Of a DNA stretch of 64,000 nucleotides, positions 8,840 to 52,237 are shown in pieces. How positions within the stretch are numbered: position 1 is the first letter of the stretch; each line of letters starts with the position of its first letter. The DNA is taken from positions 1 through 64,000 of IMG/VR virus record IMGVR_UViG_3300031993_000006; one strand, written 5' to 3'. The position numbers and the translations under genes were made by a program. This DNA is from a virus (taxonomy: Duplodnaviria > Caudoviricetes). The notes beneath the pieces were generated by a model. It was not told the origin of the DNA, ran no database searches, and saw nothing but the letters and a program-made list of their open reading frames with translations.

Positions 8840-8878
8840 AATAATTTCCTCTTCAGGAAGAAAACTATACCAATTTGA

Positions 8879-9568: not shown

Positions 9569-9570
9569 AA

Positions 9571-31131: not shown

Positions 31132-31627
31132 GAGCCGAGTCCTCCTGCTTACCGACCTTTGCAGCATGTTCCTTCTTGGTGCCGCCGCGCTTCTTCTTTC
31201 CGCCATACATCTCGAGCAGCTTAGCCGGCTCGTAAATACGGATGTACTTCTCCTCAATCTTCTCGATATCGAGGAGCTTTCCGTACTTCATCGTAGCAAC
31301 CACATCGTTATGGCTGAGACCAGTCACCTTCATTATACGCTCAATCTGCTCAGTCTTCTCGCGGAGAGCCTCGGTCTTGGCACGGCACCACCGATTGTTC
31401 ATATGAACATGGTTCAGACCCTGCATAGTGATTGCCTGTATATCCTTCGGGAGATGGGAAAAGGTCAGCTCGTTCAGCTCATGGGCGACCCTACGCATAT
31501 TCGGGTCCATCGACACTGACTGCACCACATTGAACAGCTGAAAATTCCGCTTATCGTCATCGGTAACAGGAAGCCCCTGTGCACGGGCTCTCATAAAGGC
31601 AAACGGGTCGAACTTATACTCCGCCAT
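31124..31627 (-). CDS. Clamp loader small subunit (gp62-like)
   Basis: SVSMD...AHELN...Q...RWCRAK; downstream of gp44. Confidence 0.75.
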   Translation of the reverse strand: MAEYKFDPFAFMRARAQGLPVTDDDKRNFQLFNVVQSVSMDPNMRRVAHELNELTFSHLPKDIQAITMQGLNHVHMNNRWCRAKTEALREKTEQIERIMKVTGLSHNDVVATMKYGKLLDIEKIEEKYIRIYEPAKLLEMYGGKKKRGGTKKEHAAKVGKQEDSAHV

Positions 31628-32930
31628 TTGGATACCCTCCCGGGTATGTCGCCTGGGCATACTGTACATTGGCGGCCGGAGTAGCCTGGGCATTTACCGT
31701 CGGGGCAACCTGTGCGAACTGAGCCGCATTTGCCTGATACTGAACCGGCTGTTGCTGTGCCGGGGCAGGATTAGCCTGATGTGCCGCCTCCTGTTCCTCG
31801 ACGATATCATCAACGGTCAACGTATTGTTCTTTTCATACTGCATCTCAACCGGGTCAACCCCCATCTTCCCTACCATCTGGTACTGCCCGATTAGCATCA
31901 TGACATCGCAAAGGAATTCATACAGGGCGATTTCCTGGTTCACCTGAGTATTCGATGCACGATACGCCTTGCCAAGCATTGACCCAAATTGGATATACAT
32001 CCAGTCGATTTGCCCGGTGACCGGTAGAGGAATCCTGGAGAAGAAATACAATCCGAACGGGACATACACGCTCTTGCAGTCGTGGAATTCCTGCGAGATG
32101 AAATACCGGAGCCTTCTCGGGTCCATTGCGATTACATTCCGATAGAGCTTCGCGATTGATTCCTCGCGGATTACATTCGGGTGGCCGACAATGCTGCCAC
32201 CGTGTTCAAGGAAGGTAAGGTGCATCGCGTTGACCATCGCGCGGACATCCGGATAGCAAGCATTGATTGTTTCCACCAATGTTTCCTTGGACACCTGTCC
32301 ACCAGTAATTGCGGTTTCCTTCTTAGCAATTTTCTTTAAATGCTTGTATATACGATTCTTGTAACCCTTGTCGTCACCCGGATGGTCGAACGGGATTTCC
32401 TTACACCGTGAGCGAATTGCCGCCGGAAGACGACCAATATCATTACAGGTCAAGATAAAACGGAGATTACTGGATGTCGCCTCGATAAGAGACTGCAGCT
32501 TACGATAGAAGGAATCCGGATTGGACGGATTATCCGCCTCGTCAATTACGAAGTATTTAGGCAACCCGTTACCGGAACGATACATTCCGCCTTCGGAAAT
32601 TGCATCGATAATCTCGGAATCGCGCTGTGCATAGAGAACTTCTCGTTCGGCACCCATCAACAGCGGGAGCGCTTCGGCCAAGCTAGTCTTTCCAGTTCCC
32701 GGCACACCCGAATAGAAAATGTAGTTATTGTAGCCACCGAGCTGAAGCATACCGATAACCCAGTTCCGCATCTTATCCGGCAAGATTATTGCCCGGACAT
32801 CGGATTCATCAAGGGTAATCCCACGGTACTTTTCCACCCATGCCTTGGTAGGGTCATCATCGGCAACCGGACGCCCCGTAATAGTAGACTGCACGGGAAG
32901 GCCCGTAATAAAATCAATTTCGTCGTTCAT
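31614..32930 (-). CDS. Clamp loader ATPase subunit (gp44/RFC-like) with Gln/Ala-rich tail
   Basis: WVEKYR, GVPGTGKT, IDEAD, FILTCN, SRC. Confidence 0.93.
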   Translation of the reverse strand: MNDEIDFITGLPVQSTITGRPVADDDPTKAWVEKYRGITLDESDVRAIILPDKMRNWVIGMLQLGGYNNYIFYSGVPGTGKTSLAEALPLLMGAEREVLYAQRDSEIIDAISEGGMYRSGNGLPKYFVIDEADNPSNPDSFYRKLQSLIEATSSNLRFILTCNDIGRLPAAIRSRCKEIPFDHPGDDKGYKNRIYKHLKKIAKKETAITGGQVSKETLVETINACYPDVRAMVNAMHLTFLEHGGSIVGHPNVIREESIAKLYRNVIAMDPRRLRYFISQEFHDCKSVYVPFGLYFFSRIPLPVTGQIDWMYIQFGSMLGKAYRASNTQVNQEIALYEFLCDVMMLIGQYQMVGKMGVDPVEMQYEKNNTLTVDDIVEEQEAAHQANPAPAQQQPVQYQANAAQFAQVAPTVNAQATPAANVQYAQATYPGGYPNGGV

Positions 32931-33354: not shown

Positions 33355-34284
33355 CTAGGCCCCGAGCCAGTTGATATTTTCCGGATGGTATTCGATAACG
33401 AACTCGCCATTGGTATATTGCATTTCGAATTCCATTCCGACATCGAGCATTCCCCGTAAAGTCCGGGAAGAATCAATGTCGGAAATCACCTTGAATGTCA
33501 TCATGTAACCCCCGTGCTCGCCCGCCCGGAGATTCTTCATCATTCCAACTATGCGACCATCCATGAACTTGACAGGGTAAATGCCCTTGGAATACTTTTC
33601 AATAAATTCGGCATTAGCTTCAGGCTCTTCTCGCTGCCATGCCGGCCGAGGGTTGCTGAAAGGAATATCTATCCAGTCGCCATACAGGCTAAGCGAGCGG
33701 TTAATATTCCCGTAGCCGCACGGAACAATCCGATTACGAATACGGAAACAACTTTCATACTCATTATCGGCATCCTTCTTGACAACTTCTTGGTTTTCAG
33801 AATCGACATCATACCAAATTTTGGTGTTCAGATAATGCTTCATACGAGGCGAAAGATATACCGTACCTTCATTGCTCAACTCACCATCGTAAACAACAGT
33901 TTCGTATATACGGTCAGTAACCACAATAGCCTGTTCAAACAGTGCCGCGCCACCAATGAAGAAACACTCGGTTTCTTCGAAACGCTCGGCCATCGAAAGC
34001 GCTGCCCAGATAGAATTCGTGCAATAAACCGGGCAATCTCCGGTACCTATGGTTGCCAGTTGCAAATTATGCATATAAGCGTCATCCCGGGTAACCACGA
34101 TAAGTTTCCTACCAGGAAGCTTCCCCGGAAGCGACTCGTAGGTCTTCCTGCCCATTATAAGGGTATGCCCCATAGTAATCTTCTTGAACCTAGCAAGGTC
34201 CGCCTTGAGTTTCCACGGGAGCTTACTGTTGATTCCGATGTGGGAATCAGTGTAGGAACGGGCAAGAATCATCGACCTAATCAT
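33355..34284 (-). CDS. folA: Dihydrofolate reductase with C-terminal extension
   Basis: IG..KLPW...D...F, IMGRKTYESL, LPGR, FIGG. Confidence 0.9.
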   Translation of the reverse strand: MIRSMILARSYTDSHIGINSKLPWKLKADLARFKKITMGHTLIMGRKTYESLPGKLPGRKLIVVTRDDAYMHNLQLATIGTGDCPVYCTNSIWAALSMAERFEETECFFIGGAALFEQAIVVTDRIYETVVYDGELSNEGTVYLSPRMKHYLNTKIWYDVDSENQEVVKKDADNEYESCFRIRNRIVPCGYGNINRSLSLYGDWIDIPFSNPRPAWQREEPEANAEFIEKYSKGIYPVKFMDGRIVGMMKNLRAGEHGGYMMTFKVISDIDSSRTLRGMLDVGMEFEMQYTNGEFVIEYHPENINWLGA

Positions 34285-34352
34285 AGTCTTTCCTCAACAA
34301 AAAAGCAGCGGCCGTAATTAGCCACCGCTTCAAATATAGCAATTTCGGGATT

Positions 34353-35165
34353 CTATACCGCAATCGGCGCCTTGATGACCGGCCACGGGTCATAATCGAC
34401 CAAGGTAAAGTCGTCAAAGCTGAAATCGAATATGTCCTTAACATCAGGATTGATAGCCATCTTGGGCAACGGACGCGGTTCACGGGTAAGCTGAAGCTTC
34501 GCCTGCTCGAAATGGTTGGAATACAGATGGGTATCCCCGAGAGTATGGATGAACTCGCCCGGTTCATAACCGCAAACCTGAGCAAGCATCATCGTCAACA
34601 AGGAATAGGACACGATGTTGAACGGAACACCGAGGAAAGTATCGGCCGAGCGCTGATACAACTGGCAGCTAAGCTTGCGCTTCCCGGATTCGCCAACTCC
34701 CCCGACATAGAACTGGAAGAGGCAATGACAGGGAGGCAATGCCATATCCTTGATATCGGCCACATTCCAAGCGCAAACAAGATGTCTACGGGAATCCGGG
34801 TTATTCTTCAAGCCCTGCACGAGTTCGGAAATCTGGTCAATCGTGCGGCCATCCGGAGCATCCCAGCTTCTCCACTGCTTGCTGTAGATTGGACCGAGGT
34901 CGCCCTTTTCGTCTGCCCATTCATCCCAAATAGTAACACCGTTATCATTCAGGAACTTGATATTGGTGTCGCCCTTGAGGAACCAGAGCAATTCATAGAT
35001 GATACTGCGGAGGTGCAGCTTCTTGGTGGTCAAGCACGGGAATCCCTTGGACAAGTCAAACCGCATCTGGCGCCCGAACACGGACCGAGTACCGGTACCC
35101 GTGCGGTCGCTACGGTCGACCCCGTTTTCCAATATATCCTTAAGCAAATCAAGATATTGCTTCAT
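34353..35165 (-). CDS. thyA: Thymidylate synthase
   Basis: [35 protein letters not shown]. Confidence 0.98.
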
Positions 35166-35176
35166 AACAAATCTCC

Positions 35177-38110
35177 TTAGATAAATTCAAGCATTGCGTC
35201 AGTTTCGTCATACTCGAGGTCTTCCGGCCATCCGACAGCCTTGAACAGACGCCCGAGAATGTTGGACACTGACTTTTCCCACTGGTCGTTCCAGTCCACA
35301 TAGAACAGCTCGAACAGGCGCTCCGGGCATTCCTCGCCGGTGTAGCACATGATTGTCACATCATATTCATTCTCGGCAACCTTAATGAACTTCATCTTCT
35401 CGCCGGCGGCGATAGGTTCATAGGTACTCTGAGACAGAACCGGGTCAGTATCGATAAGGTAGTTCCAGACGGAAGCCGCACGGCGACGGAAGTCAAGCTT
35501 CGCGTATTCCTCACGCGGCAAACGGCACTGAAGAGGATACGGAATCGGCTCTTCCTTCATGCCGGACGGAATGGAAATATACGAATACTTGTGCTTATCG
35601 ACCGCCTCGAAAAATTCCTTCTTGATTTCAAGAACACGGGAGCGGACGACTTCCTTGTCCATCGTACGGAGCATCAGCTTGACGGTATCCATCATGCGCT
35701 CGCGGCTGAACATCGTGGTAGAGCTTCGGACAATTTCGAGACCCGTAACGGCGAAGTCCGGGGTAATCTCGAGGGTACCGGTCTTGATAATCTTACCGGT
35801 CTCGTCCTTCACAGGTTCCTTGTCGAGATACACGATGTCTTCGTTGGATTCCACTTCGCAGATGTACTTCTTCTTGGCAGTGACGATTGCCTTGTAGATG
35901 CACTTTTCACGCTTCAGGAAGAGTTCGTTCGTAAGGTATCCCCACCGGGTAGCATACGAAAGCATGAACTCGTCGAGCTTCTCCTCGAGAATCACGGCGT
36001 CCATAATGCGGCAGAAGTCGGTGATGCGGTAGCGGTTATAGATGATTCGGTAACCGTCACCCCACACAATTCCATCGTAGAACATAATCTTGACCTTGGT
36101 GAGGCCGCTCTTCTTGTCCACCGCGCGGTTTTCCGGGTCATGCCAGGTGGAATGCGCATACTTGTTGCACATACGGTTGAAGCACTTACGGGACTCGAGG
36201 TCCTCCTCGTCGGTCTTACCGAACGCATAGCGCTCGACCTGCTCGTGACCCTTGAACACGATGACCTCGGTACCGGTACCCTGCTTCTGGCGGAACTGTT
36301 CAAAGAGGTCGCCGACCTTGCAGTAGAACGAGTCGGTATCGCCGTGTGACATTCTCTTGTACAGAAGCTGCCCATCTTCATCCTCGGTAGTCCCGAGGAA
36401 TTCCGGGTTGATTGTCGGGCTGTAACCGAATGCGTTGATAAAGCGCGGGTCGGTGGCGACTTCCTCGTTGAGATACTTGGCAAGCTGCTCGATGGTGTAC
36501 TTGATGAGGTTTCTTCCGTAAGCCGTAATAGATGCGGCGTTGTCCACATCGTACAATGGGAAGAAGTTGGAACCGAGAAGACCGTATAGCGAGTTACCGA
36601 GGACCTTGTAGACCTTCTGCATCATATCGTAGATGGCAGTCATCTCGTGGTCGCCCGCCTTCTTGGCAGCCTTCATCTTGTTCTTGAGGCTTGCACGGCC
36701 ATCGAAGAGTAAACGGGTAACCTGCGGAACGATACCTTCCTTGTCCTTGCGGAAATACACCTTGTAACGGCCATTGTGGTCCCACGGGCTCTCGATGAGG
36801 TACTTCCTCTCCTCCTCGGTAAGCACATAGTCAATCGGCTTGGTGACCTTGACTTCCGGAGAAGTATTGAAGGTCATCATAATTGACGGATATAGCGAAC
36901 GGTAGTCGTAGGACACGAGCCAAGTGTAGAAGCCCGGGATTGAATAAACGAATGCACCTGGGTATTCTTCCTTGGACTGTTCGCGGAATGCCGGGAACAC
37001 AAGGTTATGCTGATGCAGGTGGTTCATCACGAACCCGACGAGCATCTTCTTGCTTTCAAAAACAAACGAGAACGGAACATGGGCTTCCGAAGCAGCGGTC
37101 ACACAGAGCTGGAACATCCGCTCGTGCATCTCGATGAGCTTCAAAAGGCGCACGTCCTGCCAGTTATACTTGATGAAGAGAGTCCAATCAGTGCGCCAGG
37201 TCTGGTAACCGTCCTTCAACGGCTCCTTGTGCTCACCGGTAACCTTGCCACCAATGTAGTCAAGCTTGTAGGACGGTTCTTCGGAGAATGTATACTTGCG
37301 ATAGAGGGCGAGGAAATCGATAACTTCCGTTCCGGCAATCATCAGGCAGTCTTCGCGTTCGTCCCACCACGCCTTCTTGAACTGGGCCGGGAGGCGGGAC
37401 ATAAGGTTGAGCGGGACGCCGAGCTTCTCCGCGCGGTTCACCATGTAGGTGGTATCGTACGAGAAGTTCCAACCGGAAAGAATGGCGACTTCATTACTAC
37501 CAATCTCGGTAAACAACCGGCGCAGGAGGTCCGCCTCGTCCGAGCAGAGAACATAGACAGCATTTTCCTTTGCCATCTCGTCCTTGAGGGACTGGTCGAT
37601 GTCCTGTCCGACACCGTATGTGATGTAATTGTCAGTCGCCGAAAAATAAATCGTTACACAGTTAATCGGGTATTCGGCACGGTGGGCTACGGGGAATCTT
37701 CCGGTAGTAGCCACCTCAATATCAAGGAAGCAGATATTGATTTTCTTCATGTCCGGCTTGAGCATCCCGGACTTCGCGTAGTGCTTCTGGAGGAACCTTG
37801 CACGGGGGTCGATGTCGATTTCGGCCAGGTGGTTCTGTGGGCCGCGCGCATCGTTGTATATCTTTCGTTCGGCTGTCGTATGCCGCTGGACGGCATACAT
37901 CTCTCGACCGTAGATATCCTTCATGCCACAAGGGACTGCGCCGAGTTCTCCCCGGTTCGGGGTATAGAATGTGTTGACGATGCGAGTCTGCTCCATCGTT
38001 CCGTCATCGTACCACAGGAACAGGTTGTCAGTATCCCTGTCGTGATAGATGGCCGACCACATTCGAGTCTCGGCGGTCTTGTCCGCCGGGCGTGTTATCG
38101 TAGCTTCCAT
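35177..38110 (-). CDS. Family B DNA polymerase (gp43-like)
   Basis: [14 protein letters not shown]...[23 protein letters not shown]. Confidence 0.97.
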
Positions 38111-38885: not shown

Positions 38886-40150
38886 ATTATAGTGACGGGA
38901 AAACTCACCGCCTTTTAGGCGGTGAGATGAAAGCTCTTTTCATAAACTATTAAAATAGAGTATATTTGAGATATGTTTCAACGGGCATACCACATCCGGC
39001 TATATCCAAGCCGGCAGCAGACGGTCTTGCTAGGCAAGACATTCGGCTGTTGCCGCAAAGTGTACAACTGCATGCTGGACGCTCGTTTGAAGTCGTATGA
39101 GTCGACCGGCACACAGTGCCGGACGAAACCTACCGACTACTATGCCGAGTTTCCGTTCCTTAAAGAAGTTGACAGCAACGCCCTCACGGGTGAGGTGCTC
39201 AACCTGAACGCGGCATTCAAGAACTTTTTCGAACGTAAGGCCGATGGAGTCGGGCTTCCGAAGTTCAAGGCTAAACATCACGACCGCGATTCTTATACCA
39301 CTTATCGGACAAAAGAAAATATCCGAATCGAGAACGGCAGGCTGCGCCTGCCGAAAATCGGCTTCGTCAAGTTCAAGGATTATAAGAATATCGACTGGAG
39401 CGAGAAAGATATCAAGCACGCGACCGTAAGCCGGTCGCGTTCGGGAAAGTTCTACGCCTCGATACTGGTTGAAGAGGAAGCGCCGAAGGCGCTTCCAAAA
39501 TCCGATTATTCCGTAGGCGTCGACCTCGGAATCAAGGATTTCTGCGTGACGAGCGACGGTGAAGCCGTCGCCAACCCACGCTATATGAAACAGGCTGAGG
39601 ACCGCCTAGCGGTCCTCCAGAAAGCGTTTTCAAAGAAAAATGGCAAGTCTGCTCGTCGCGAGTCGCTGCGCAAGCGCATCGCCCGCCTCCACGAGCACAT
39701 TGCTAGCCAACGCAAGGATTTTCTCCACAAGCTGTCCACCAGACTCATTCGCGAGAACCAAACGATTGCGGTCGAGAACCTGGATGTAAGGCAGGTCGCC
39801 GAAGGCGACCTTGCCAAGTCCGAGCACGATGCCGGATGGGGAATGTTCCTGAACATGCTTAAGTACAAGGCTGATTGGTATGGGAGGACCATCGTCCGTG
39901 TCGGACGATGGTTCCCTTCCTCCCAAATCTGCCACTGCTGCGGCTTCAGGAATGAAGTTGTTAAAGACTTGAATGTCCGGGAGTGGAAGTGTCCACAATG
40001 CGGCACTTCCCACGACAGGGACTTCAACGCCGCCATCAACATCCTTACCGAAGGTAAAAGAATTCTCGCCGCCGGAACGGCGGTTCAAGGCGCGGGCGCC
40101 CCTACGGGGCTAACGCGAAGCGCGCAGCTTTCAAGCTGCGCGTAGTTCAC
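38886..40150 (+). mobile_element. IS200/IS605-family TnpB-only element, copy 2 (complete)
   Basis: Target TTTAT at 38881-38885; left hairpin 38904-38926 with guide AAAA. Right hairpin CGCGCAGCT-TTCA-AGCTGCGCG (40121-40142) with guide GAAG and end TCAC (40147-40150), matching IS608-type guide/cleavage rules. Confidence 0.92.
38973..40145 (+). CDS. tnpB: TnpB RNA-guided endonuclease
   Basis: HTH_OrfB start, RuvC D (GVDLG), E (AVENL) and D ([10 protein letters not shown]), and zinc ribbon CHCC...CPQC. Confidence 0.97.
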
Positions 40151-40221: not shown

Positions 40222-40869
40222 ATGGAACTCAACATACCCAAAGCCACGACAGCAAGCCACGAAGTCCCTATCTTCAACGATTTGGCAAAGGAAGCTAACC
40301 TCCCGGTCAGCGAAATAAAGGCACGATTCCGGAAAAAGATGCTCGAGCTTCACGAAAAAGCAATGGACGACCCTTCCATACTGAGTCTCGGCGGCGGACA
40401 TGACGAGCTCGTTGAAAAAGCGATTACCGAACTCCGTACGGAACTCCAGCACCCCGAAGAAACAAACAGCGATAACGACGAATACAGCCAACTGATGGGA
40501 TTCGACCCAAATGAACCTTCTCCCGTCGGAGACATCTTCGACGCGCCGAGTGGCGACGGCGGATTTGGCGGTGGAATCGGCGGTGGTGGCGGAGGCAGCT
40601 TTGGTGGCGGCGGTGGCGGACTTGGAAGCACCGGCGGCACCGGCGGCGGAATTGATAACCTTGACCTTGGATTCTCCGATGAAGGAATGGCTGCGGTCAA
40701 CAGCGTCGAAAACAACGAGAACAATGAATCGCTGGATGCCGGTAGCGTAAATGCGATATCCGAAACTGAACCGGGCGGCGCCGAACTGTCCGAAAATAAC
40801 GAAACGGAGTCCGACAAATCGCCGAACCCCGTTGAAAATTCAAGCGGTGATGACCTAGCTGAACTTTAA
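40222..40869 (+). CDS. Acidic Gly-rich late protein
   Basis: TATAAACT at 40188-40195; poly-Gly tract. Confidence 0.75.
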   Translation: MELNIPKATTASHEVPIFNDLAKEANLPVSEIKARFRKKMLELHEKAMDDPSILSLGGGHDELVEKAITELRTELQHPEETNSDNDEYSQLMGFDPNEPSPVGDIFDAPSGDGGFGGGIGGGGGGSFGGGGGGLGSTGGTGGGIDNLDLGFSDEGMAAVNSVENNENNESLDAGSVNAISETEPGGAELSENNETESDKSPNPVENSSGDDLAEL

Positions 40870-42077
40870 CCCCCGAAGTACATACACTTGCGGGAGAACT
40901 TCGGGCACGAGAATGTCATGAAGATTCTCCCATCTTCAGAATAGAGCATCTCGAGGACGGCGGTCGCGGCATAACGAACCATCATCGTACTCACATCCAT
41001 AGGGAGCGTAAGGCTCTTGTCCGTTTCATTCACCAAGACGCCGCTCATCGTAATGACACCAGAGTAACGGTTCACCTTGGTCTTCTTCTTAGTCTTGCTC
41101 TTTGCCCTCTGGACGACTACTTCCTTCACATCGTCGTAGGAATAACGGATTTCTACCGTCTTCTCGTCAATCGGCTTGATTTTGACCGGAGCTGTCGGGT
41201 CAAGGTAGTTCAACCCGTAGACCATATCGATAGTAGCCATCATGCCGAGGGTATCGAACTTCATATACGGCTTCATCCCTTCAGTTGTACCCGTGCGCAG
41301 CTTGCCTTCCGCAAAGGAATACACGATGCTGTACAGACGGCCAGCCACGCGGAGCTTCTTGCGTTCCCAGTCGAAATCGATGGTGCAATAAGGCATCATG
41401 TTGGAATCAGCCGGAGTTACATAAGAGAAACACTTGAATACATTGGACGGAACGGCAACCGCGAAATCCCTTAGTTGTTCGCGGTCTTGAGCACCGAGCT
41501 GGCCAATCTTTGCCGGGAGAGTCGCAATGCAAACCCGCTCATCACCGGTGCGGATAGAAAATGTACCTTCAGTACGAACAAGTTCAACATTCTTGAAGTT
41601 ATAACAAGTTTCGAGGACGGAACCGACAATCATCTGTTCCACCTGGATAGTCTCATCCGGAGTAAAATCGAGATTGATTTCAAACGGGTCGAGGAGAGGA
41701 AGGCTAGCTTCGGACTCGAAGCATTGCAAAGATTCGTTAAAAGAAGAACCGACATAGATGCGCCCACCAGAAACCCACATAGCAACCAAGCCGTCCTTGA
41801 CGCCCTTGTCACACATCACGAAGAAGTCCTGAAGGCGAACATAGGCATCACTGTCAAGACACTGGGACTTGAGAGTACTGTCAATAAGGACGCTGAAACC
41901 GGTATCGGTCGTAATCCGCATATAGACGAGCCCGTCCTCCGCTTCATTGGAGAAAGTCTCGATATGAATCTTGCTGTCCGGAGACTCACAGGACTCGCCA
42001 ATAAATGAAACCGCTTCACGGAACCCTGTGACCGTGTTGAACATGATAAGATTTGGTGTTTTTGCTTCTTCGCTCAT
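40866..42077 (-). CDS. DnaN (beta-clamp)-like protein, divergent
   Basis: Colinear resemblance to DnaN: AYVRLQDFFVMC...VAMWVSGGRIYVGS, SLPLLD, IRTGDERVCI, VAVP, SFAEGKL. Confidence 0.6.
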   Translation of the reverse strand: MSEEAKTPNLIMFNTVTGFREAVSFIGESCESPDSKIHIETFSNEAEDGLVYMRITTDTGFSVLIDSTLKSQCLDSDAYVRLQDFFVMCDKGVKDGLVAMWVSGGRIYVGSSFNESLQCFESEASLPLLDPFEINLDFTPDETIQVEQMIVGSVLETCYNFKNVELVRTEGTFSIRTGDERVCIATLPAKIGQLGAQDREQLRDFAVAVPSNVFKCFSYVTPADSNMMPYCTIDFDWERKKLRVAGRLYSIVYSFAEGKLRTGTTEGMKPYMKFDTLGMMATIDMVYGLNYLDPTAPVKIKPIDEKTVEIRYSYDDVKEVVVQRAKSKTKKKTKVNRYSGVITMSGVLVNETDKSLTLPMDVSTMMVRYAATAVLEMLYSEDGRIFMTFSCPKFSRKCMYFGG

Positions 42078-42163
42078 AGAAAAATCCTTTTGTACGATTA
42101 GGAAACTAATGCAAAAAGCGGCAGCCGAAGCCACCGCCTTCTGTATCTCATCGTAAATTTCGA

Positions 42164-43651
42164 TTAAAATATGTTGCCAAGACCGCCGAGCGCGAAGTCT
42201 GTCTTGTCCTGTTCCCCGGAGCCCCCGTGGGTTTCCCCGGTCTCGTTCATATCGACACCCGGGTTGGTCACATTTTCAGCAGCCTGCCCGAACTGGCTCT
42301 GGGCATTATCCATCATATCGCCCATCTCGCCCGGATTGTTGAGGTTAACGCTTTCGTCAGGAGAAAGTCCGCCGCCGACACCAGTCTGGTCATCAGCCGG
42401 GAATATCGTAGAAGCAGCTTCCTTGGCAGTATCGTGCATAGCAGTTCCGTCAGCGTTGTACACTTCCGGGAACCACTTCCCGAGATTCGTCTTGAACTTG
42501 ACGACATCGACATTGCCCTCTTCAAGAGCCTTGCCCATTTCCTGCAGACCCTTAACCGGCAACGGCTGTTCACCGAGAGCCTTGAATTCATCAAATGCCA
42601 AGAACTGCTCGACAAGTTCGCTAGCAATCATCTTGTCGACACCCGGGAACCCTTCGCGCCATTCCTTGGCACTGAGCTTAGCACCGGCTGAACCATTTTC
42701 GGTCAAATCAGACAAGCCGTCGGCAACTATCTGAGACAAACCGTCGAGCGCAGCCTGAGAGAACGCCGTCTGAGCATATTCAGCAAATTCTTTCATATCT
42801 TCGCCCTTACCGTTACCATCAGATACCCCATTAACCTGGCCAGCATTCTGAGGAGCGTCGGTACCGTCGCCTGACGGAGGCGGCGTCGGCGCATTACCAT
42901 CAGCGGGTCCGGTAGAACCATCAGCTGGAGCAGCAAAATCAGCCGCACCGAAATCATCAGCTTCATTCAGTGCACACATCTCGCAAAGGTTACGGAGCTG
43001 ATGGAGACGCCAGTCGACTGACTCGTAAGCAGTAATGTTATTCGGGTCATTCGTAGCAATATTCAACGTATCGTTAAAGTTGTTGCCCGGAGCCTTGATG
43101 ACTTCCCCGCCATAGATATTGTTGTTTCGAAGTTCATCAGCATTGCGCGCAATCAATTCCCTTGCCTGCTGGAAAATGAACTGAGAGAAGTTAATTCGGA
43201 ACTGGTCCGATTCCGGGGACACATCGATAAATGTATTGGCATCGTTGCTCAAGGCAAGCTCAACCGTGATTTCGCCCTTCGGAGTCGGATACTTCATATT
43301 CATATCGACATGCTGGCCATCGCAATCAAACTCTCCGTGCATCGAAGTCTCGTTGAAATCGATACCGTCGAGGTTAATGCGGATGCCGGTATTCTGCCGA
43401 GCCGTGGAAGTCGCCTCTGTAAGGAACTTTATCCCGATATCCTTCATCGAGAGATAGTTCTTGTGTCCAAGAAGACTCTTGTTTTCGTATGTACGGTGGT
43501 CAAAGTCTTCCTTGGTCTGGTCGCCTACGGGGCCCAAAGTCCCCTTCATCATAGAAATAGACGCGGTACGAGCCGGAGTAACCGGCCCGCTCTTGGTCGT
43601 AGTATATTCGAAGGTATTCCTAAAATCCTTCAACGAAACGCCTTTACTCAC
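42164..43651 (-). CDS. Acidic late protein, probable virion/core protein
   Basis: TATAAACT at 43680-43687 (minus); LTE, LCE and LNE motifs. Confidence 0.7.
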   Translation of the reverse strand: MSKGVSLKDFRNTFEYTTTKSGPVTPARTASISMMKGTLGPVGDQTKEDFDHRTYENKSLLGHKNYLSMKDIGIKFLTEATSTARQNTGIRINLDGIDFNETSMHGEFDCDGQHVDMNMKYPTPKGEITVELALSNDANTFIDVSPESDQFRINFSQFIFQQARELIARNADELRNNNIYGGEVIKAPGNNFNDTLNIATNDPNNITAYESVDWRLHQLRNLCEMCALNEADDFGAADFAAPADGSTGPADGNAPTPPPSGDGTDAPQNAGQVNGVSDGNGKGEDMKEFAEYAQTAFSQAALDGLSQIVADGLSDLTENGSAGAKLSAKEWREGFPGVDKMIASELVEQFLAFDEFKALGEQPLPVKGLQEMGKALEEGNVDVVKFKTNLGKWFPEVYNADGTAMHDTAKEAASTIFPADDQTGVGGGLSPDESVNLNNPGEMGDMMDNAQSQFGQAAENVTNPGVDMNETGETHGGSGEQDKTDFALGGLGNIF

Positions 43652-43699
43652 GGGAACCTCGTAGAAACTGTTTTCCGCAAGTTTATATGGCGAGCTTTC

Positions 43700-44584
43700 C
43701 TATTCTACCAGGAATTCGTGGTTAATTTCGCCACCGTCACTTTCCATGCCGGCCACATAGAGGGAAATCGGGTCAGCCGGATTGGCACCCGGTATCGAAG
43801 CGAATCCCTTCAATGCAATCTTGTCGCGCTTCTCGTTCTTTCCGTGGCGGATGTCAATCTCGTAGTCGGTGTCGATACCCTTCAGGATATTAAAGTAAAT
43901 GGCCGGAATCTTGCGGAACTTGTCATGCGAGCTAGCGTAGGCCTGGTCGATGAAATCGGCAGACCCCATACGGGTTAGGTTCCTCGGCACGGTATTGGTA
44001 ATCTGCTGGCCAGTACGGCCTTTCATATAGATGTTAATCTTGGTATGGGTAAGCACGACGGACACGAACTGGCAACCCGGAACCATCCTGAGTTCATCGC
44101 AGGTAGTCTTGAGCTCATCCTTGTTCATAACGAATGTAGCAAGGAGGTGCATCGGGTCAACATTCCTGTCCAACGGGCAGTGCCTAGCCCTCTGGTCAAA
44201 GCGGGTAGGGTCGGCGCATATCGTACGGGCCGTCTTAGTCGCGGTCGCATCGGTGCCGTTCATGAACTTAACCATCGGGTACACATGACCGTTGGTAAGC
44301 ATTTCGTCAAGCACGGTAATGTTGGCTTCCGGATTGTTCGGATACCCGACCAACTCGCAGAAGCGGATAAATTCCATTAATGATGCAATACACACTTCCC
44401 TCCCACCGAAATTGAAATCGTCCGCCCCGGCAGATATGTGGAGGAAGGTAGCCGTCGTAGGTACCGTGATGCGGCAACGACCGTTAGCCTTGAAGAAAAC
44501 AGTTGACTTTGACTTACTCACCATCGTAAGTTTCTTCAACAAAGAGAAGAACTGTGGCGACATCTTGATAATCTGTGGTTCCAT
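43700..44584 (-). CDS. Sliding clamp (gp45-like)
   Basis: IKMSPQFFSLLKKL...F..REVCIASLMEFI...ICADP pattern of gp45; located in the replication operon. Confidence 0.7.
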   Translation of the reverse strand: MEPQIIKMSPQFFSLLKKLTMVSKSKSTVFFKANGRCRITVPTTATFLHISAGADDFNFGGREVCIASLMEFIRFCELVGYPNNPEANITVLDEMLTNGHVYPMVKFMNGTDATATKTARTICADPTRFDQRARHCPLDRNVDPMHLLATFVMNKDELKTTCDELRMVPGCQFVSVVLTHTKINIYMKGRTGQQITNTVPRNLTRMGSADFIDQAYASSHDKFRKIPAIYFNILKGIDTDYEIDIRHGKNEKRDKIALKGFASIPGANPADPISLYVAGMESDGGEINHEFLVE

Positions 44585-44587
44585 AGG

Positions 44588-46606
44588 TTAGACATCCTTT
44601 AATGAGCCAAGCGGCTTCTTGATAAAGTTAGCAATTCTTTCGACACCGAGGTTCATTTCCGGTGTCCTCGGGCGCACGACATACTCCAAACTCCCCCAAC
44701 TTTCGACCGATATCTGCATCATCGGTATACTGAACTTCAAGCAGAGCGCAGATACCGACGGACCGAGAAGCCCCCTCTGGTCGCCGAGCTGCTGGAAAAA
44801 GCTGATATACCCAAGTTCCCTAAGGTATTCCCCGCGAAGCGCGACAAACGGGCCGTCCATCACCTGCACCAGGTGCATACCGTCAATAGCCCTCGTACCG
44901 AAAACCCTGCGGTGCTCCCCGGTTATCTCGCTGTACAACCCGTAGAACCCGTAGGTATTCGGGCATCCTATCCAGCTGCCGTCAGCAAGACGGTACTCGT
45001 AGCCAAACGGGGCTACCGCGCCTACTTCGGCGGGAACTTCGTCGAGGCACTTGTGGAACATCGGGTCGGAAATGAACGAAGTCGACGACGCGAGAATTAC
45101 CCACTTCGGGGTAAACCGCACACTGAGGGACTTAAACTTGGCAATCGCGTTGTTAATGGCACGGGCGAACGAAGGCGGAATCTTGCGGCGGCCATAGACC
45201 TTCCCGCAGGTCATCCGGAATACACACTCGTCCTTCACATGCGGATATTCATCGTAGCGCCCATGCAGCCCGTCCGAGCTGAACAGGAAGGTGACAATCT
45301 GGCGCTCGTCGGAAAGGCGGAGAATATCGTTTCGGGTAGCCACGGTACGGCGGACCTCCGGACCGGAACTGAGAATGTTCCTGATTGCGTTGAGCTGTTC
45401 GTACTCACGGTTAACCTTGTCCAGCACCGCACGAGACTTCTTCTGCTTTTCGGCCTCCCGTTCCTGTATGGATGCGGCGATTGCGGCTTCCATCTGCTCG
45501 ACCGGATTAGCAAATATGACCGGCGGGGTAGCCAGCGCAGCCTTGCTGCACCCGGTACGGACATAGAGCTTCATCGGCTGCTTCTTGCGAATCTTGCACT
45601 CGACACCCTTGGCGACAACCTTCTCCACATCGGCCTTCACCCATCCCCTGATGACCATCCCGGGTTTCGCGGTAGGCGGCGCTATCGAGCCATCATTCAG
45701 GACGTACCGACACTTGCCACTGATGAACTCATCAATCCACCGTTCGGACTTCAAGAACTTATACTGTATTGCACGACGGGTATAGTAGGTATATCCCTCG
45801 CAATAGTACACCCTGTCATTGTGGGTGTCAATAAGGTCGTCAAGGAAGGCCCGGCTATATAGATAAGTGTGCGCATCCTTGGTTTCCGGTGTCGGCTTTA
45901 CCTCGTGGTACTCGCGCATCTTACGGAAGTAGCTGTTAGTCCATCCCATATAGATTGCGGCGATTTCCGCGGGAATCGATTCCGGAAGCGGAGTCTTCCT
46001 GAACCATCGACGCCCGCTACGGTCAGGATTCAAATAGGCAAGCATGGCAGCCTTGCTATACTTGTACGGCTGACGGCGCTCCCTCGGCTCGTGGTGTATC
46101 TTCCCTTCCTTGGTGAGAATCTTCAAGCGCTTTATCGAGATTCCCATAAGCATCGCGGCAACCGAGCGTCGGACTGGCGCAGTCATCTGCATTATGAGGT
46201 AGTACGGGTACCACTCGCGGTAGAACCGTTCGATATCCCGGCGGTAGACCACGGTCTTCCCGGTCTTCTCCGACTTGTGCGTACGGAGCTTCCCGCTCTT
46301 GACAAACCTAATGTACTGCCCGGGCTTAAACTTCAGTTCAAGCATCGCTTCAGCCTGAGTGAACTCGTGTCGGGGATGCAGGTTGTCCGGCGGCGTGATG
46401 CGATATTTTGCGACAGCATCCATAGCCGCAGTAAAGCGGAACATCTTCATCCCATTCTCGTTGTAACGGAAAGGAACATCGTCGAACATCCGGCTGCTCT
46501 TCAACTTGGATGTCGGGATGTTGAGGTACTTCGACAGGTACTGGAACCCGACGAACTCCGGAGTCACATTCCGGTTCTTGTAAGCCTGATGCAGAATAGC
46601 CGGCAT
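44588..46606 (-). CDS. Multi-HTH (MerR/excisionase-like) protein fused to a GT-A-like domain
   Basis: About five wHTH units (e.g. FTQAEAMLELK...VKSGKL, VAAMLMGIS...KEGKI). C-terminal SFARAINNAI...VGAVAPFG...VQVMDGPFVA. Confidence 0.65.
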   Translation of the reverse strand: MPAILHQAYKNRNVTPEFVGFQYLSKYLNIPTSKLKSSRMFDDVPFRYNENGMKMFRFTAAMDAVAKYRITPPDNLHPRHEFTQAEAMLELKFKPGQYIRFVKSGKLRTHKSEKTGKTVVYRRDIERFYREWYPYYLIMQMTAPVRRSVAAMLMGISIKRLKILTKEGKIHHEPRERRQPYKYSKAAMLAYLNPDRSGRRWFRKTPLPESIPAEIAAIYMGWTNSYFRKMREYHEVKPTPETKDAHTYLYSRAFLDDLIDTHNDRVYYCEGYTYYTRRAIQYKFLKSERWIDEFISGKCRYVLNDGSIAPPTAKPGMVIRGWVKADVEKVVAKGVECKIRKKQPMKLYVRTGCSKAALATPPVIFANPVEQMEAAIAASIQEREAEKQKKSRAVLDKVNREYEQLNAIRNILSSGPEVRRTVATRNDILRLSDERQIVTFLFSSDGLHGRYDEYPHVKDECVFRMTCGKVYGRRKIPPSFARAINNAIAKFKSLSVRFTPKWVILASSTSFISDPMFHKCLDEVPAEVGAVAPFGYEYRLADGSWIGCPNTYGFYGLYSEITGEHRRVFGTRAIDGMHLVQVMDGPFVALRGEYLRELGYISFFQQLGDQRGLLGPSVSALCLKFSIPMMQISVESWGSLEYVVRPRTPEMNLGVERIANFIKKPLGSLKDV

Positions 46607-47796
46607 TAGAACACTACCTCCGCCCGATTGCTTTCCTTCTTCTGACGGAACGCGCGGATTCCCTCGTAGCGCTTCTTTGAAGCTTCCTTGCGCATATTCC
46701 CGTATTTCAGAGCGAACAGGATAGAAGCCCCGTCCGGCGCCCTAGTCCTCGACTCAAGGACTTCCCGGCACACATACCCGTCACGGTCAAGCGGCATTTC
46801 TCCCATCATCACGGCCTTGTTGATATCCTTGCTCTGCAAACCTTCCCAGGTGAACCAGCGGAACCCCATGCGGCAAGTCGCTTCACGGGCTTCACGCCCC
46901 TTATCATCGTTATCCCAAAGAACCACGATGTTGTTCTTGTGTTCGGCAAGCCGCGGATTCTCGTTGATAATCTCGAGGAAGTGCGGAATGCCACCGATAG
47001 CGATTGAATTGCGTATAAAGGTAGAATCTATCGTACCCTCAAGGATATAGATAGTTTCGTCGTAGTTGATAAAGTCAATATTATACGCAGTGCGCTTGAC
47101 TCCGGCGAAGTTCAGGTAGCGCAACGGATTCTTCTCGTCGATTGCGCGGGCGTCGAACTGCCCCCACTTACCCCCGAACTGGTAAAACGGGATTATAATG
47201 CGGTTGCGGTACTCGTTCCCTCTCGGGTAGCCCTTCTCGTTCAGTACGAGATTCCCCATAGCGTCACGGTCGTAGAACTGCTCGCCCGCCTGGCATACGA
47301 ACCAGTCGTGATACACCTCCTCGCGGATTCTACGGTATTGGCAAAGCTGCAGACCGGCAATCGCCAAAGGATGATGCGCTGTTATCGGAATTATTTCCCC
47401 GGGCTTGAACGGGAGTACGGGCTGCGGAGGAGGTGGAGGGGGTGGAGGAAGCTTTGCTTCCCCATTATGCGTACCAACCTTGAAGCTCTTCTTTTCCGGG
47501 CCGAACGCATTGAACAGCAGCTGCCTATAGGCATCCTCGTCCCGCTCCTTCAGCCACATCGCATACGGCTTGATTGGCGTACACTTGTAACACACATACA
47601 TCCATGTATCGGTGTATATGTACGCCTTCTTCTCGTTAGGCCGTGTAGGGTCGCCACATTCAGGGTTCGGACAAACAAAGTTGAAGAATCTCGGATTAGA
47701 GTCATCAAGTGTATTTGCCGCCACCTGGTCTGCCAACTGCTCGTGAATAGAGTCGATGTACACGGCGGCCGGTATGTCGGAAAAATCATGCTGCAT
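46606..47796 (-). CDS. DNA primase (gp61-like)
   Basis: CPNPECGD...CYKC zinc domain, RIIIPF, EGTIDS, WDND, KDIN. Confidence 0.92.
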   Translation of the reverse strand: MQHDFSDIPAAVYIDSIHEQLADQVAANTLDDSNPRFFNFVCPNPECGDPTRPNEKKAYIYTDTWMYVCYKCTPIKPYAMWLKERDEDAYRQLLFNAFGPEKKSFKVGTHNGEAKLPPPPPPPPQPVLPFKPGEIIPITAHHPLAIAGLQLCQYRRIREEVYHDWFVCQAGEQFYDRDAMGNLVLNEKGYPRGNEYRNRIIIPFYQFGGKWGQFDARAIDEKNPLRYLNFAGVKRTAYNIDFINYDETIYILEGTIDSTFIRNSIAIGGIPHFLEIINENPRLAEHKNNIVVLWDNDDKGREAREATCRMGFRWFTWEGLQSKDINKAVMMGEMPLDRDGYVCREVLESRTRAPDGASILFALKYGNMRKEASKKRYEGIRAFRQKKESNRAEVVF

Positions 47797-47867: not shown

Positions 47868-49691
47868 TTAGAATGGCAATGTGTCGTCACCGTCGGTTTC
47901 ATAGGTCGGAACTTGCTGCTGTGCAGTGGCGGCCTGTTGCTGGACCGGAGCGGACGGAGATACACCTTGGCTTGGGACCGTGAAAGCCGGCATTGCCGGT
48001 GCGGTTGCTGGAGCCGGAGCTGGCCTATAAGGTTCAGCGGGCTGAGCTGCCGGGGCGGCTGCCGTGGCTGCCGGGGCGCCCATCTGGACACCCTGCAGGG
48101 CAAACTGGGCTGCGGTCGGAGCCTTAAACTGCGTAGCCGCCGGAGCTGCTACCTGTACACCCGGCTGTGCAAACTGAGATGCCGCCTGAGCAGGTGCTAC
48201 AGAAGCCGGAGCGACAAATGTCGGTGCGGCTGGTGCAGCTGCCGGCTGACCAAACTGAGGTGCGGCGGCGACAGCCGGCTGAATATTGTCCGGCTGAGTC
48301 GGGTTCACCGGAGCCCGCATCACTGCAGGAGTCGGGGAATACGCGGTTGTTGCCGGGGTATTCGGGACCTGCCCAAAGGAAAGACCTGTCTGAACCTTAG
48401 TCGTAGGCGGGACCTTCGGGATATTGCCCTGCAGCACATAACCCTGAGCGCCTGTCTGGAACGGCTGAGCGGCGTATGTCGGGTTGTACGGGGAAGCTGC
48501 GCCCGGCATCTGCTGTGCGCCCAAGCCGAAGTTGCCTGCGGCAGCGCTCTGCTGCTTACTTGCAATGTCTGCGTTGACTTCCTGCCAGAACTTAGCCAAT
48601 GTTGCACGAGCCTGTTCCGGAGTCGGTGTATCTTCGTAAACGATAGTCAAGTCATGGCAACGCTGCAAAATGTCGTACATTTGATTTTCGTCAAATACGA
48701 CTTCCTGCATACCGGTCTGCGGATTGACAACAGTCTTTGTAGCAAGCATAGAGGAATAACCGGCAAAGCCACTACCCTGATAGGTCGGTGCACCCTTCTT
48801 GCCGGTACCCATACTCTTCTTTTCGTCCCAGACGCCAGCAATCTGATAGTTTCTTCCCTGAACAGGGTCATACGGAATGAAACAGTTACCCTTATCGAAG
48901 TACTGCTTTCCTTCCTTGATAGCTTCGGCCCTCTTGTTATATTCGGTAACCGGTTCCTGAAGCGTATTGTGCTGGAACTTATTCATTTCCCAGAGCTTCA
49001 CCTGGCCAGCAAGTTCATTATGGTTTTCATCGGAAATAATTAATGCATTTCCATACCATACATCTTCAGGCAACATCTGAAGATATTTCTTCAATGTATT
49101 ATCATCGGCGCCGGCTTCCTTAGCAGCATTGCGGCGATTCCATACATCCTGGCAGTACGGGCAGCTGAACTTGTCTACACCCGGAATTATCTTGCCATCC
49201 GGAGTCTTGGTCGGATTCTGGCAGCACTTTGCTATAAGAAGCTTACCGGTGACCAAATCACGAATATAGTGGAACTTTACGCATACATACGGATAGCTTG
49301 CGAAATTAGTGCCATTCGGAAGCGGTCGGACCGTAGCCGTATAAGTCTTGTTCTTTTTAGTAACGCGCGGACGATAGATTCGCGGGTCTGGCGGTGGTTC
49401 ACCGTTACCGGTATTTTCAGTCGGTTCCGGTTCAGCGGCCGGAGCTGTAATATAAAGCATACCGCCATTGGGTACCGCCGGATTACCCGGGGCAGCACCC
49501 GGAGCCATACCCTGGGACATGCCTTGCGGCATACCCTGAGCCATACCCTGAGCCATACCCGGGGTCATACCCGGCGCCATCATCTGGGCCGGTGCGGATG
49601 GGTCCTGACCCTGTGCATATTGGAATTGTGTCGGCCGAGCAGCCGCCGGATTGGGCATCACGTCCTGCATTTGTTGCATTGATTGTGTCAT
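47868..49691 (-). CDS. ssDNA-binding protein (gp32-like) with long disordered N- and C-termini
   Basis: ATVRPLP...H...C...CPYC...N.GQVKLW...YDPVQGRNY...PTYQGS.F; ends DGDDTLPF. Confidence 0.85.
   Translation of the reverse strand: MTQSMQQMQDVMPNPAAARPTQFQYAQGQDPSAPAQMMAPGMTPGMAQGMAQGMPQGMSQGMAPGAAPGNPAVPNGGMLYITAPAAEPEPTENTGNGEPPPDPRIYRPRVTKKNKTYTATVRPLPNGTNFASYPYVCVKFHYIRDLVTGKLLIAKCCQNPTKTPDGKIIPGVDKFSCPYCQDVWNRRNAAKEAGADDNTLKKYLQMLPEDVWYGNALIISDENHNELAGQVKLWEMNKFQHNTLQEPVTEYNKRAEAIKEGKQYFDKGNCFIPYDPVQGRNYQIAGVWDEKKSMGTGKKGAPTYQGSGFAGYSSMLATKTVVNPQTGMQEVVFDENQMYDILQRCHDLTIVYEDTPTPEQARATLAKFWQEVNADIASKQQSAAAGNFGLGAQQMPGAASPYNPTYAAQPFQTGAQGYVLQGNIPKVPPTTKVQTGLSFGQVPNTPATTAYSPTPAVMRAPVNPTQPDNIQPAVAAAPQFGQPAAAPAAPTFVAPASVAPAQAASQFAQPGVQVAAPAATQFKAPTAAQFALQGVQMGAPAATAAAPAAQPAEPYRPAPAPATAPAMPAFTVPSQGVSPSAPVQQQAATAQQQVPTYETDGDDTLPF
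49498..49585 (-). repeat. 12-bp tandem repeat encoding GM(A/T/P/S)(Q/P)
   Basis: MAPGMTPGMAQGMAQGMPQGMSQGMAPG. Confidence 0.9.
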
Positions 49692-51397: not shown

Positions 51398-52168
51398 CTA
51401 TGGCTTTTTGGCTGCACTGCGCGGCTTGCGGACCGGCTTACGGCGCTCGGCAAGCTTTTCCAAGTCAACCGGCCAGTCACCCATCCTGACCATAGAGTAG
51501 TCCACCAGAGCCCGCCGGTCGAACTGCTTCTTTGGCGTATGGTAGGTAAGCATCGTCAGTATGTCCGGCGGGAGACTTTCCGGACCGAGTATGTCGTGCT
51601 TGATATGATTCCTGAGAATCTCGCACATCCAAAATGCATCGCAAAGGTCAGAATGAGGACTTTCGTACTGCTTCGGGAATTTATCGAATTCCGGATAGTA
51701 GAATTGCGGGTACAGTGCCCTCATCGCCTCACACATGGCCGGCTTCCCGGCATCGCCGTCACCGGTAGCAAAATGTTTAATCTGAGTAATTCCATAAGTA
51801 ATAATTCCCTTGCCCTGCAAATAGAAATGACGGCGATAAACACCGCAGAACTCCCCTATCTGGAAAATCGAATTACTGTTTCCCTCGTTAGCCTTTTCGT
51901 AGGCATAATCTTCAAAGGACACATACTGCACATCCTCCATGTCCCGCTCAAGAATCTTTATCGCCCGCTCCTGTCGAACAAGCATAGGAACCTTGACGTA
52001 ATCCGTACCGCTGCACATAATATGGACATGCTCGGTTTCGAGAATAGCGTTGATATGTGGCTGGAACCCGTAAAACTGGATGTCCTTGATATCAAAAGTC
52101 TCGTCGTCGAGGTCCATTATGACTTTTCCTGACGAGTTCATCGAAGGGTCAATACCGGCAATCTTCAT
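51398..52168 (-). CDS. RuvC-like Holliday junction resolvase
   Basis: IAGIDPS, FEDY, IKHFATG.G.A.K, DLCDA. Confidence 0.85.
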   Translation of the reverse strand: MKIAGIDPSMNSSGKVIMDLDDETFDIKDIQFYGFQPHINAILETEHVHIMCSGTDYVKVPMLVRQERAIKILERDMEDVQYVSFEDYAYEKANEGNSNSIFQIGEFCGVYRRHFYLQGKGIITYGITQIKHFATGDGDAGKPAMCEAMRALYPQFYYPEFDKFPKQYESPHSDLCDAFWMCEILRNHIKHDILGPESLPPDILTMLTYHTPKKQFDRRALVDYSMVRMGDWPVDLEKLAERRKPVRKPRSAAKKP

Positions 52169-52237
52169 TTGTACTCCTATGATAAAGAGGGTGGGAACCC
52201 CCACCCTCCTATCCTACCTACCATGCAACAAACTAAT

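Follow-up and report, generated by a model that had tools for sequence, protein, structure and literature searches.

A 64,000-nucleotide stretch of phage DNA (Caudoviricetes; positions 1 to 64,000 of IMG/VR record IMGVR_UViG_3300031993_000006), referred to here as the window, carries, within a replication module of T4 type, two genuine sliding-clamp genes that differ in architecture and have stayed together; the module provides a single clamp loader and a single DNA polymerase. The first encodes a DnaN-like three-domain clamp, P0001 (403 aa; 40866-42077, minus strand), and the second a two-domain protein of the PCNA/gp45-type clamp fold, P0002 (294 aa; 43700-44584, minus strand); a conserved acidic protein, P0003 (495 aa, isoelectric point (pI) 4.35; 42164-43651, minus strand), is encoded directly upstream of the DnaN-like gene. 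The virus record, of which the window is the leading 64 kb, is 259,974 bp long (CheckV completeness 91%; G+C 0.50). Because 15 studies of gut metagenomes, bovine and sheep ones among them, contain near-identical DNA, and because its family B DNA polymerase (PolB) is far from those of cultured T4-like phages (~26-28% identity), the phage is an uncultured ruminant-gut jumbo phage of ~260 kb. The reading that we favour, tentatively and at a little less than an even chance, is that the PCNA-type protein is the replicative clamp and that the DnaN-type ring is a second clamp that serves another transaction on phage DNA together with the acidic protein.

The open reading frame (ORF) of P0001 is intact and its ATG start matches the N-termini of 25 close homologues, which share 36-95% identity and some of which reside on contigs of up to 470 kb; a longer GTG start at 42134 was rejected as it falls inside a terminator hairpin. 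A profile search of 1.8 billion representatives returned 35 clusters, extending down to ~14% identity. Two family alignments were used, one of 26 sequences for the viral-contig scan and conservation and one of 44 sequences for AlphaFold. The model built from the latter (predicted local distance difference test score (pLDDT) 91.2; predicted template-modelling score (pTM) 0.85) is divided by DSSP into six β-α-β3 units that make up the three domains of a clamp. Foldseek against the PDB placed bacterial DnaN on top (E 9e-16, template-modelling score 0.6-0.7), the top matches all being DnaN, and VIA-align superposed the model on DnaN of Thermotoga maritima (1vpk) with a Z-score of 27.0 and a root-mean-square deviation of 3.3 Å over 337 residues; each of the best 50 VIA rows is likewise a DnaN, matched over the full length. 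The closest viral models in BFVD are annotated phage beta clamps, headed by that of PaBG and including those of Motura, Heva and others. As modelled, 40866-42077 encodes a three-domain DnaN-type clamp fold. The three-domain DnaN pattern had been proposed for this gene in an earlier, sequence-only reading that made the proposal hinge on the predicted structure, and folding followed by Foldseek returned a three-domain clamp.

The sequence itself yields far less. P0001 is 9-14% identical to bacterial DnaN and received no name from Pfam, PHROG, PADLOC or single-sequence PDB searches. At E up to 0.1, the Pfam families PF00712, PF02767 and PF02768 leave both P0001 and all 44 family members unmatched, and the DnaN models found no match in the whole genome at E up to 10, in a search where controls matched in 11 of 14 genomes. 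Both clamps and a distant family member, P0060, were also without a match by megablast and tblastn among 50,697 phage records. The P0001 family profile does rank Streptococcus pneumoniae DnaN first among PDB sequences, albeit weakly (E 0.006); hhalign places residues 76-262 of P0001 on residues 66-243 of Escherichia coli DnaN, also weakly (E 1.4e-3, probability 18%); and the profile finds the beta clamp of phage PaBG (E 7e-6; hhalign probability 64%). Some of the Atlas clusters that neighbour P0001 carry DNA_pol3_beta domains. These sequence links to DnaN appear weak yet concordant. The alignment to E. coli DnaN that the sequence-only reading had given also holds, as the segment TVPARKFFDIC...IAVQLEGERMLVRS is present in E. 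coli DnaN and hhalign gives the same register. The basic insert RAKSKTKKKTK pointed out in the same reading exists within a 20-residue extension of a domain III hairpin, but the other 23 sequences have a gap there; as it is limited to this phage and the two relatives nearest to it, it is not a feature of the family.

The DnaN-type clamp is predicted to close as a head-to-tail homodimeric ring. A two-copy model of P0001 reached an interface score (ipSAE) of 0.63 against 0.00 for the best control, with a partner pLDDT of 86 and with at least 96% of contacts the same between runs, a pass to which solved DnaN dimers learned by the predictor may have contributed; the mark set for this test was reached in calibration by 20 of 30 solved homomers and by one of 23 single chains. 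The modelled interface is formed in DnaN style, symmetrically in both copies, by the domain I edge strand 119-127 and helix 81-92 against the domain III edge strand 335-345 and residues 285-291, and it bears the invariant family residues F120, E121, E123, R337, Y338 and T343. Other highly conserved stretches are SxRTG-D/E-R-V in domain II, YMKFD at the junction of domains II and III, and RKCMYFG at the C-terminus, with S174, R176, G178, Y271-D275, R396, K397 and Y400 among the conserved positions. By alignment and by comparison with E. coli beta, these stretches may correspond to the client-pocket region of DnaN, which is formed by domains II and III and the C-terminus and at which clamp clients dock. 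The family is acidic throughout (pI 4.4-5.0; E. coli DnaN, 5.25), and a low pI is the criterion for loader-dependent ring clamps used by Kazlauskas and Venclovas (PMC3201878).

That the pocket-aligned stretches, mapped in this way, are among the most conserved would also suit a protein directed at the host, one that is loaded by the host DnaX loader or titrates it, and that sequesters host clamp-binding proteins or recruits host enzymes. Such a role is in keeping with the presence of a beta-type clamp in a phage that has neither a gamma-type loader nor a family C polymerase, and with a DnaN-like gene that evolves faster than the core of the replisome, a common trait of genes that interact with the host. 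It is nevertheless improbable. The decoy or poison for the host loader imagined in the sequence-only reading gained no positive support, given the 9-14% identity to bacterial DnaN and an invariant surface that coincides with the protein's own dimer interface, modelled to pair with itself. Further, the linkage of the gene to those of the acidic protein, the PCNA-type clamp and PolB is kept over deep divergence, and the searches made, PADLOC among them, matched no defence or anti-defence family.

The second clamp is the less securely modelled of the pair. P0002 has 18 homologues at 56-99% identity, and its AlphaFold2 model, of moderate confidence (pLDDT 66, pTM 0.66), has a two-domain clamp topology with two β-α-β3 pairs in each half. 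Foldseek matched this model to PCNA, human cytomegalovirus UL44, subunits of the 9-1-1 clamp and T4 gp45 (E 1e-8 to 1e-7), and VIA gave Z-scores of 13-14.4 over ~230 residues, the 9-1-1 subunits matching as well as PCNA. The model thus indicates, with moderate confidence, that 43700-44584 encodes a two-domain PCNA/gp45-type clamp fold. No family match was obtained for P0002 by Pfam, PHROG, PADLOC or single-sequence PDB searches; its family profile found no clamp among PDB sequences, and a second profile search of a large protein collection added just two further distant members and no Pfam names. Compared by hhalign with T4 gp45, the profile reached a probability of 0.1%. A genome search with PF09116, the gp45 C-terminal family, allowed no reading, its controls having matched nowhere. 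The P0002 profile, which is shallow (effective number of sequences 1.6), also found no match by hhalign among the small ORFs beside distant DnaN-like genes, namely those of 212 and 302 aa in locus L012 and of 232 aa in locus L019. The sequence-only reading had called this gene gp45-like, a term that holds for the fold alone since no sequence similarity to T4 gp45 was found. P0002 has a pI of 6.7-8.1 in this clade, as opposed to 5.1-5.5 in far-clade orthologues and 4.89 in T4 gp45.

The two clamps were traced together in related metagenomic loci designated L001-L011, L012, L014, L018 and L019. The 11 IMG/VR loci L001-L011 share the order orf229, gp32, primase, 672-aa protein, PCNA-type clamp, acidic protein, DnaN-type clamp, a reverse 215-aa gene, orf201 and PolB, as judged where the flanks reach; the shortest, L001 and L002, lack the gp32 end. 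Across them PolB remains 71-82% identical, and identity falls to 40% for the PCNA-type and to 33-37% for the DnaN-type protein. The trio of PCNA-type, acidic and DnaN-type genes keeps its order in 13 related loci (L001-L011, L014 and L012). It recurs at 25-30% identity in L014, and in L012 it lies beside a PolB of 45% identity with a DnaN-type protein of ~18% identity, the PCNA-type and acidic assignments there resting on weak matches, including a cut ORF that weakly resembles the C-terminal end of the PCNA type. Only two to three genes separate polB from the DnaN-like gene in L001-L011, L012 and L018, 13 loci in all. The convergent neighbour of the DnaN-like gene (40222-40869, plus strand), which encodes 215 residues with an acidic C-terminal half, is in reverse orientation next to it in L001-L011, and a similar-sized reverse gene takes this place in L019, L012 and L018. 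Synteny of the acidic gene is kept in L001-L011, L012, L014 and L019. In the last of these (8354-11125), the acidic, DnaN-like and reverse genes sit among baseplate-, fibritin- and fibre-like genes with no polymerase beside them. Since the acidic and DnaN-type genes remain adjacent even there, away from any polymerase in view, theirs is the tightest linkage.

Both clamp genes are under purifying selection. For the DnaN-type gene the ratio of non-synonymous to synonymous substitution rates is 0.05-0.18, compared with 0.03-0.09 for the PCNA-type gene and 0.02-0.07 for PolB, and the PCNA-type gene is consistently the slower-evolving of the two, with identities of 97.9 vs 80.3% between L008 and L010 and of 85 vs 68% between L004 and L001 for the PCNA-type and DnaN-type proteins, respectively.

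Only one strong copy of a clamp-loader ATPase is present in the genome, at 31614-32930 (minus strand; phrog_168, E 5e-36). By BLASTP it matches T4 gp44 with an E of 1e-17 vs 4e-6 for the gamma/tau-like loader of PaBG and, judged from these scores, is nearer the gp44 type (RFC-like) than the gamma type. At 438 aa it has a Q/A/P-rich C-terminal extension of ~70 residues, its relatives being 357-374 aa long. The gp44/62 loader that the sequence-only reading ascribed to the gp45-like gene is accordingly borne out in its gp44 part, which lies outside the 40866-44584 interval of which that reading spoke; a gp62 equivalent was not identified, and the 189-aa ORF just downstream of the loader gene has no family match. 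Searches of the genome for PolA, PolIII-alpha and Y-family polymerases gave no match, PolB being the sole DNA polymerase found, and no gamma-type loader is encoded besides the gp44-type ATPase.

PolB ends in ...DAMLE(L/F)I, an acidic-hydrophobic tail with a five-residue spacing like that of the bacterial QL(S/D)LF motif. The acidic protein P0003, which matched nothing in Pfam, PHROG, PADLOC or single-sequence PDB searches and whose N-terminal domain drew no usable match in an Atlas search, has an invariant DFxxDDFAxP in a disordered acidic linker, a conserved WFPEVYN stretch, and a C-terminus that reads SLDNLF in near relatives and GLGNIF in this genome. It is a candidate clamp partner. When all 222 ORFs were screened for QL(S/D)LF-like motifs and for tails like those of T4, no convincing clients emerged beyond PolB, P0003 and the primase.

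These tails could be taken to mean that the replisome is chimeric, with the DnaN-type ring as the processivity clamp of PolB, loaded by the gp44-type loader, and with the PCNA-type protein acting as a primosome accessory, a checkpoint-like clamp or a loader-free DNA-binding factor. If the motifs are read correctly, the polymerase has the bacterial spacing and the T4-type SLDxLF belongs to the acidic protein. Such an arrangement would also agree with the well-conserved ring interface, with the short distance, two to three genes, between the DnaN-like gene and polB in 13 of the loci, and with the charge of the two families, the DnaN-like one being acidic (4.4-5.0) and the PCNA-type one neutral to basic (6.7-8.1), as are non-ring factors by the pI criterion (PMC3201878). 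It is rather unlikely, however, on several counts: the sole loader is of the gp44/RFC type; the beta clamps known from phages occur with PolA or PolC and with loaders of the gamma type (PMC3201878; PaBG); both the PCNA-type gene and PolB evolve more slowly than the DnaN-like gene; in L019 the latter is found among tail genes with no polymerase in view; and the far-clade PCNA-type proteins are acidic.

Further tails were noted. The short C-terminus ...(A/P)E(V/T)(L/V/Y/F)F of the primase, kept in all related loci that include the primase, might let it dock on the helicase or on a clamp. The gp32-like single-stranded DNA-binding protein (SSB) has the ending ...DGDDTLPF, for which relatives have ...D(S/D)D(D/E)DLPF; this is more like the acidic tip of bacterial SSBs than the tail of T4 gp32. 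Outside the window, a 299-aa ORF at 135798-136697 (plus strand; whole-genome coordinates) weakly matches sigma region 2 of T4 gp55 (phmmer E 9e-4) and is a possible late sigma factor. As this ORF bears no T4-type clamp-binding tail, the link of a clamp to late transcription could not be made through it.

The DnaN-like gene is probably its own transcription unit, since a strong intrinsic-terminator-like hairpin and a conserved box precede its start. The hairpin (42112-42143, minus strand), located between the acidic gene and the DnaN-like gene, has a 14-pair stem with 7 G-C pairs followed by a T-rich TTTTTG, and an equivalent is predicted in L001-L005 and L008-L011. Directly after it, ~24 nt before the DnaN-like start, is the box TAGTTTCC (42101-42108, minus strand), whose consensus TAGTTTyC is found at the same position upstream of the DnaN-like gene in 10 related loci. 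Elsewhere in the genome the box occurs at 8867(-), 24811(-), 89276(-) and 102119(+) in whole-genome coordinates, 20-30 nt before ATG starts with a ribosome-binding site and often after a terminator T run. It may represent a second class of promoter or leader beside the T4-late-promoter-like box TATAAACT, of which the window has 7 copies against 1.45 expected. One of these (43680-43687, minus strand) lies upstream of the acidic gene, a position kept in 8 related loci. The primase, 672-aa protein and PCNA-type clamp genes are spaced by 1-3 nt. The different promoter class that the sequence-only reading claimed for the DnaN-like gene is therefore partly borne out at the level of DNA motifs. Contigs of relatives in RNA libraries of two ruminant studies, 85-99% alike and mostly 90-99%, overlap parts of all three genes, but carried-over DNA is possible and they show neither level nor strand, and they are not counted as proof of expression.

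The late-type TATAAACT box on the acidic gene, together with the placement of the acidic and DnaN-like genes between baseplate-like and fibre-like genes in L019, might speak for a clamp fold that has been reused without encircling DNA, for example in a structural or assembly role. This is very unlikely in view of the full-length match to DnaN, the ring interface and the acidic charge that true clamps have. In addition, replication genes adjoin in the other 13 related loci, and a terminator stands between the DnaN-like gene and the acidic gene of late type.

In the reading favoured here, the PCNA-type protein would act as the replicative clamp because it matches the loader type, is packed into the string of genes with the primase and evolves slowly, as PolB does. 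The DnaN-type ring would be a second clamp for repair, recombination-dependent synthesis or late-gene activation, probably working with the acidic protein encoded just upstream, and its clients would dock in the canonical pocket between domains II and III. The T4-type set of the clade, in which such a division would operate, consists of PolB, the gp44-type loader, the gp32-like SSB, a DnaG-type primase, a DnaB-like helicase and a UvsX-like recombinase. A dedicated second clamp, the other option raised in the sequence-only reading, fits the predicted ring that P0001 forms by itself on invariant residues, the uniform acidity of its family and the purifying selection on its gene, and it fits a gene that stays beside the PCNA-type gene, and beside polB where that is in view, down to ~18% identity. 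Several observations weigh on the other side. The moderate confidence of the P0002 model (pLDDT 66) and the hhalign probability of 0.1% to gp45 both touch the proposed replicative clamp itself, as does its near-neutral to basic pI in this clade, which is unlike that of typical loader-dependent rings, although the far-clade orthologues are acidic. The tail of the acidic protein is lost in the most distant relatives, and the T4-type SLDNLF on the acidic protein, taken with the QL(S/D)LF-like spacing on PolB, could point to the opposite pairing of clients and clamps. The division of labour between the two clamps is, moreover, something that we infer.

Beta clamps of phages are well known, and so are clamps of the gp45/PCNA type (PMC3201878, PMC4889955), but the literature searched contained no account of a phage clade retaining one from each class. 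Here a whole clade of uncultured ruminant-gut jumbo phages has such a pair side by side, and the pair may be a natural case of two clamp classes sharing out functions that T4 gives to one clamp. It is also conceivable, though doubtful, that a T4-type replisome took on a beta ring outright, either with PolB riding the DnaN-type dimer by way of the RFC/gp44-type loader or with one loader serving two rings that split the two jobs of gp45. In the latter case one ring would serve replication and the other a second clamp-dependent process such as late-gene activation, with the acidic protein and its SLDNLF tail as a bridge. To our knowledge, an RFC/gp44-type loader acting on a beta-type ring would be a cross-class pair without precedent in any system. 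The question raised is whether an RFC-type loader can open a beta-type ring, or whether the host loader is borrowed. Both clamp families are likely to be unannotated in metagenomic phage genomes, as they are invisible to Pfam and PHROGs.

The minus strand around both clamp genes has the makeup of a T4-style replication block. The loader gene is followed by those for dihydrofolate reductase and thymidylate synthase (33355-35165, minus strand) and for the T4-type PolB (35177-38110, minus strand; PF00136, E 5e-33; phrog_262, E 4e-142). On the other side of the clamp genes, the 672-aa protein (44588-46606, minus strand) is encoded in a gene packed tightly, with synteny kept, between the PCNA-type clamp gene and that of the DnaG/Toprim-type primase (46606-47796, minus strand; phrog_47, E 1.5e-30); two stretches of it weakly match the Pfam helix-turn-helix family HTH_17 (E 5.8e-5), the 23.7 bits being under the 27-bit cut-off. 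The block continues, all on the minus strand, with the 607-aa gp32-like SSB (47868-49691), a RuvC-like resolvase (51398-52204), the DnaB-like helicase (52238-53974) and the UvsX-like recombinase (54071-55438). An IS605-type TnpB gene (38973-40145, plus strand; PF01385, PF07282; phrog_506, E 6e-124) is situated between the 215-aa gene and orf201. The 11 related loci are all without a TnpB match at that place, which makes the gene a recent arrival in the replication module.

Among known systems, bacterial DnaN (E. coli beta; T. maritima 1vpk) is the closest to P0001 in structure, sharing with it the full-length three-domain topology, the head-to-tail dimer as modelled and an acidic pI; the motifs that align with the DnaN pocket and C-terminus are conserved in the P0001 family. 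Unlike its bacterial counterparts, P0001 falls below every Pfam DnaN threshold at 9-14% identity, has the 20-residue basic extension of domain III in this lineage, and belongs to a phage without a DnaX-type loader or PolIII-alpha.

The resemblance to T4 is one of setting: a T4-type PolB, a gp44-type loader, a two-domain clamp fold, acidic-hydrophobic tails and the TATAAACT box, which is like the T4 late promoter (PMC2988020). T4 clients bind gp45 through acidic-hydrophobic tails (PMC2988020), those in the T4 record being ...SLDFLFG for gp43 and ...SLDFLYEAND for gp55. T4, however, employs a single clamp for both replication and late transcription (PMC2988020), whereas here there are two clamps of different class. 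P0002 also departs from gp45 in its length (294 vs 228 aa), in the absence of sequence similarity and in not being acidic in this clade, and no equivalent of gp62 or gp33 was recognised in this phage.

More than one protein of the ring-clamp fold per genome, which suggests a division of labour, is a feature shared with eukaryotic PCNA and 9-1-1 and with the giant viruses Mimivirus and PBCV-1. Their clamps are nonetheless paralogues of one architecture, as opposed to the two architectural classes and single loader ATPase seen here, and 9-1-1 has its own loader variant. Several PCNAs are encoded by Mimivirus and PBCV-1 (PMC3201878). Phage Mu provides a precedent for a beta-type clamp in phage late-gene expression rather than replication, its late transcription running through the host beta clamp (PMC12867686); Mu borrows that clamp, whereas this phage encodes its own.

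The phage beta clamps of PaBG (gp207), Ma-LMM01 and RSL1 (the latter two in PMC3201878) are similarly full-length, beta-type and found in large genomes, and that of PaBG is both a distant relative of P0001 and its top BFVD match. Clamp, loader and polymerase are thought to co-evolve as sets, one comprising beta, gamma/tau and PolC or PolA and the other PCNA/gp45, RFC/gp44 and PolB (PMC3201878, PMC4889955). Known phage beta clamps accompany PolA or PolC and, if a loader is present, a gamma-like one (PMC3201878), and in PaBG, Ma-LMM01 and RSL1 a polymerase of family A and a loader resembling gamma/tau accompany the clamp. Unlike PaBG-type phages, this phage offers P0001 a PolB of T4 type, a loader of gp44 type and, as a further clamp, one of the PCNA type.

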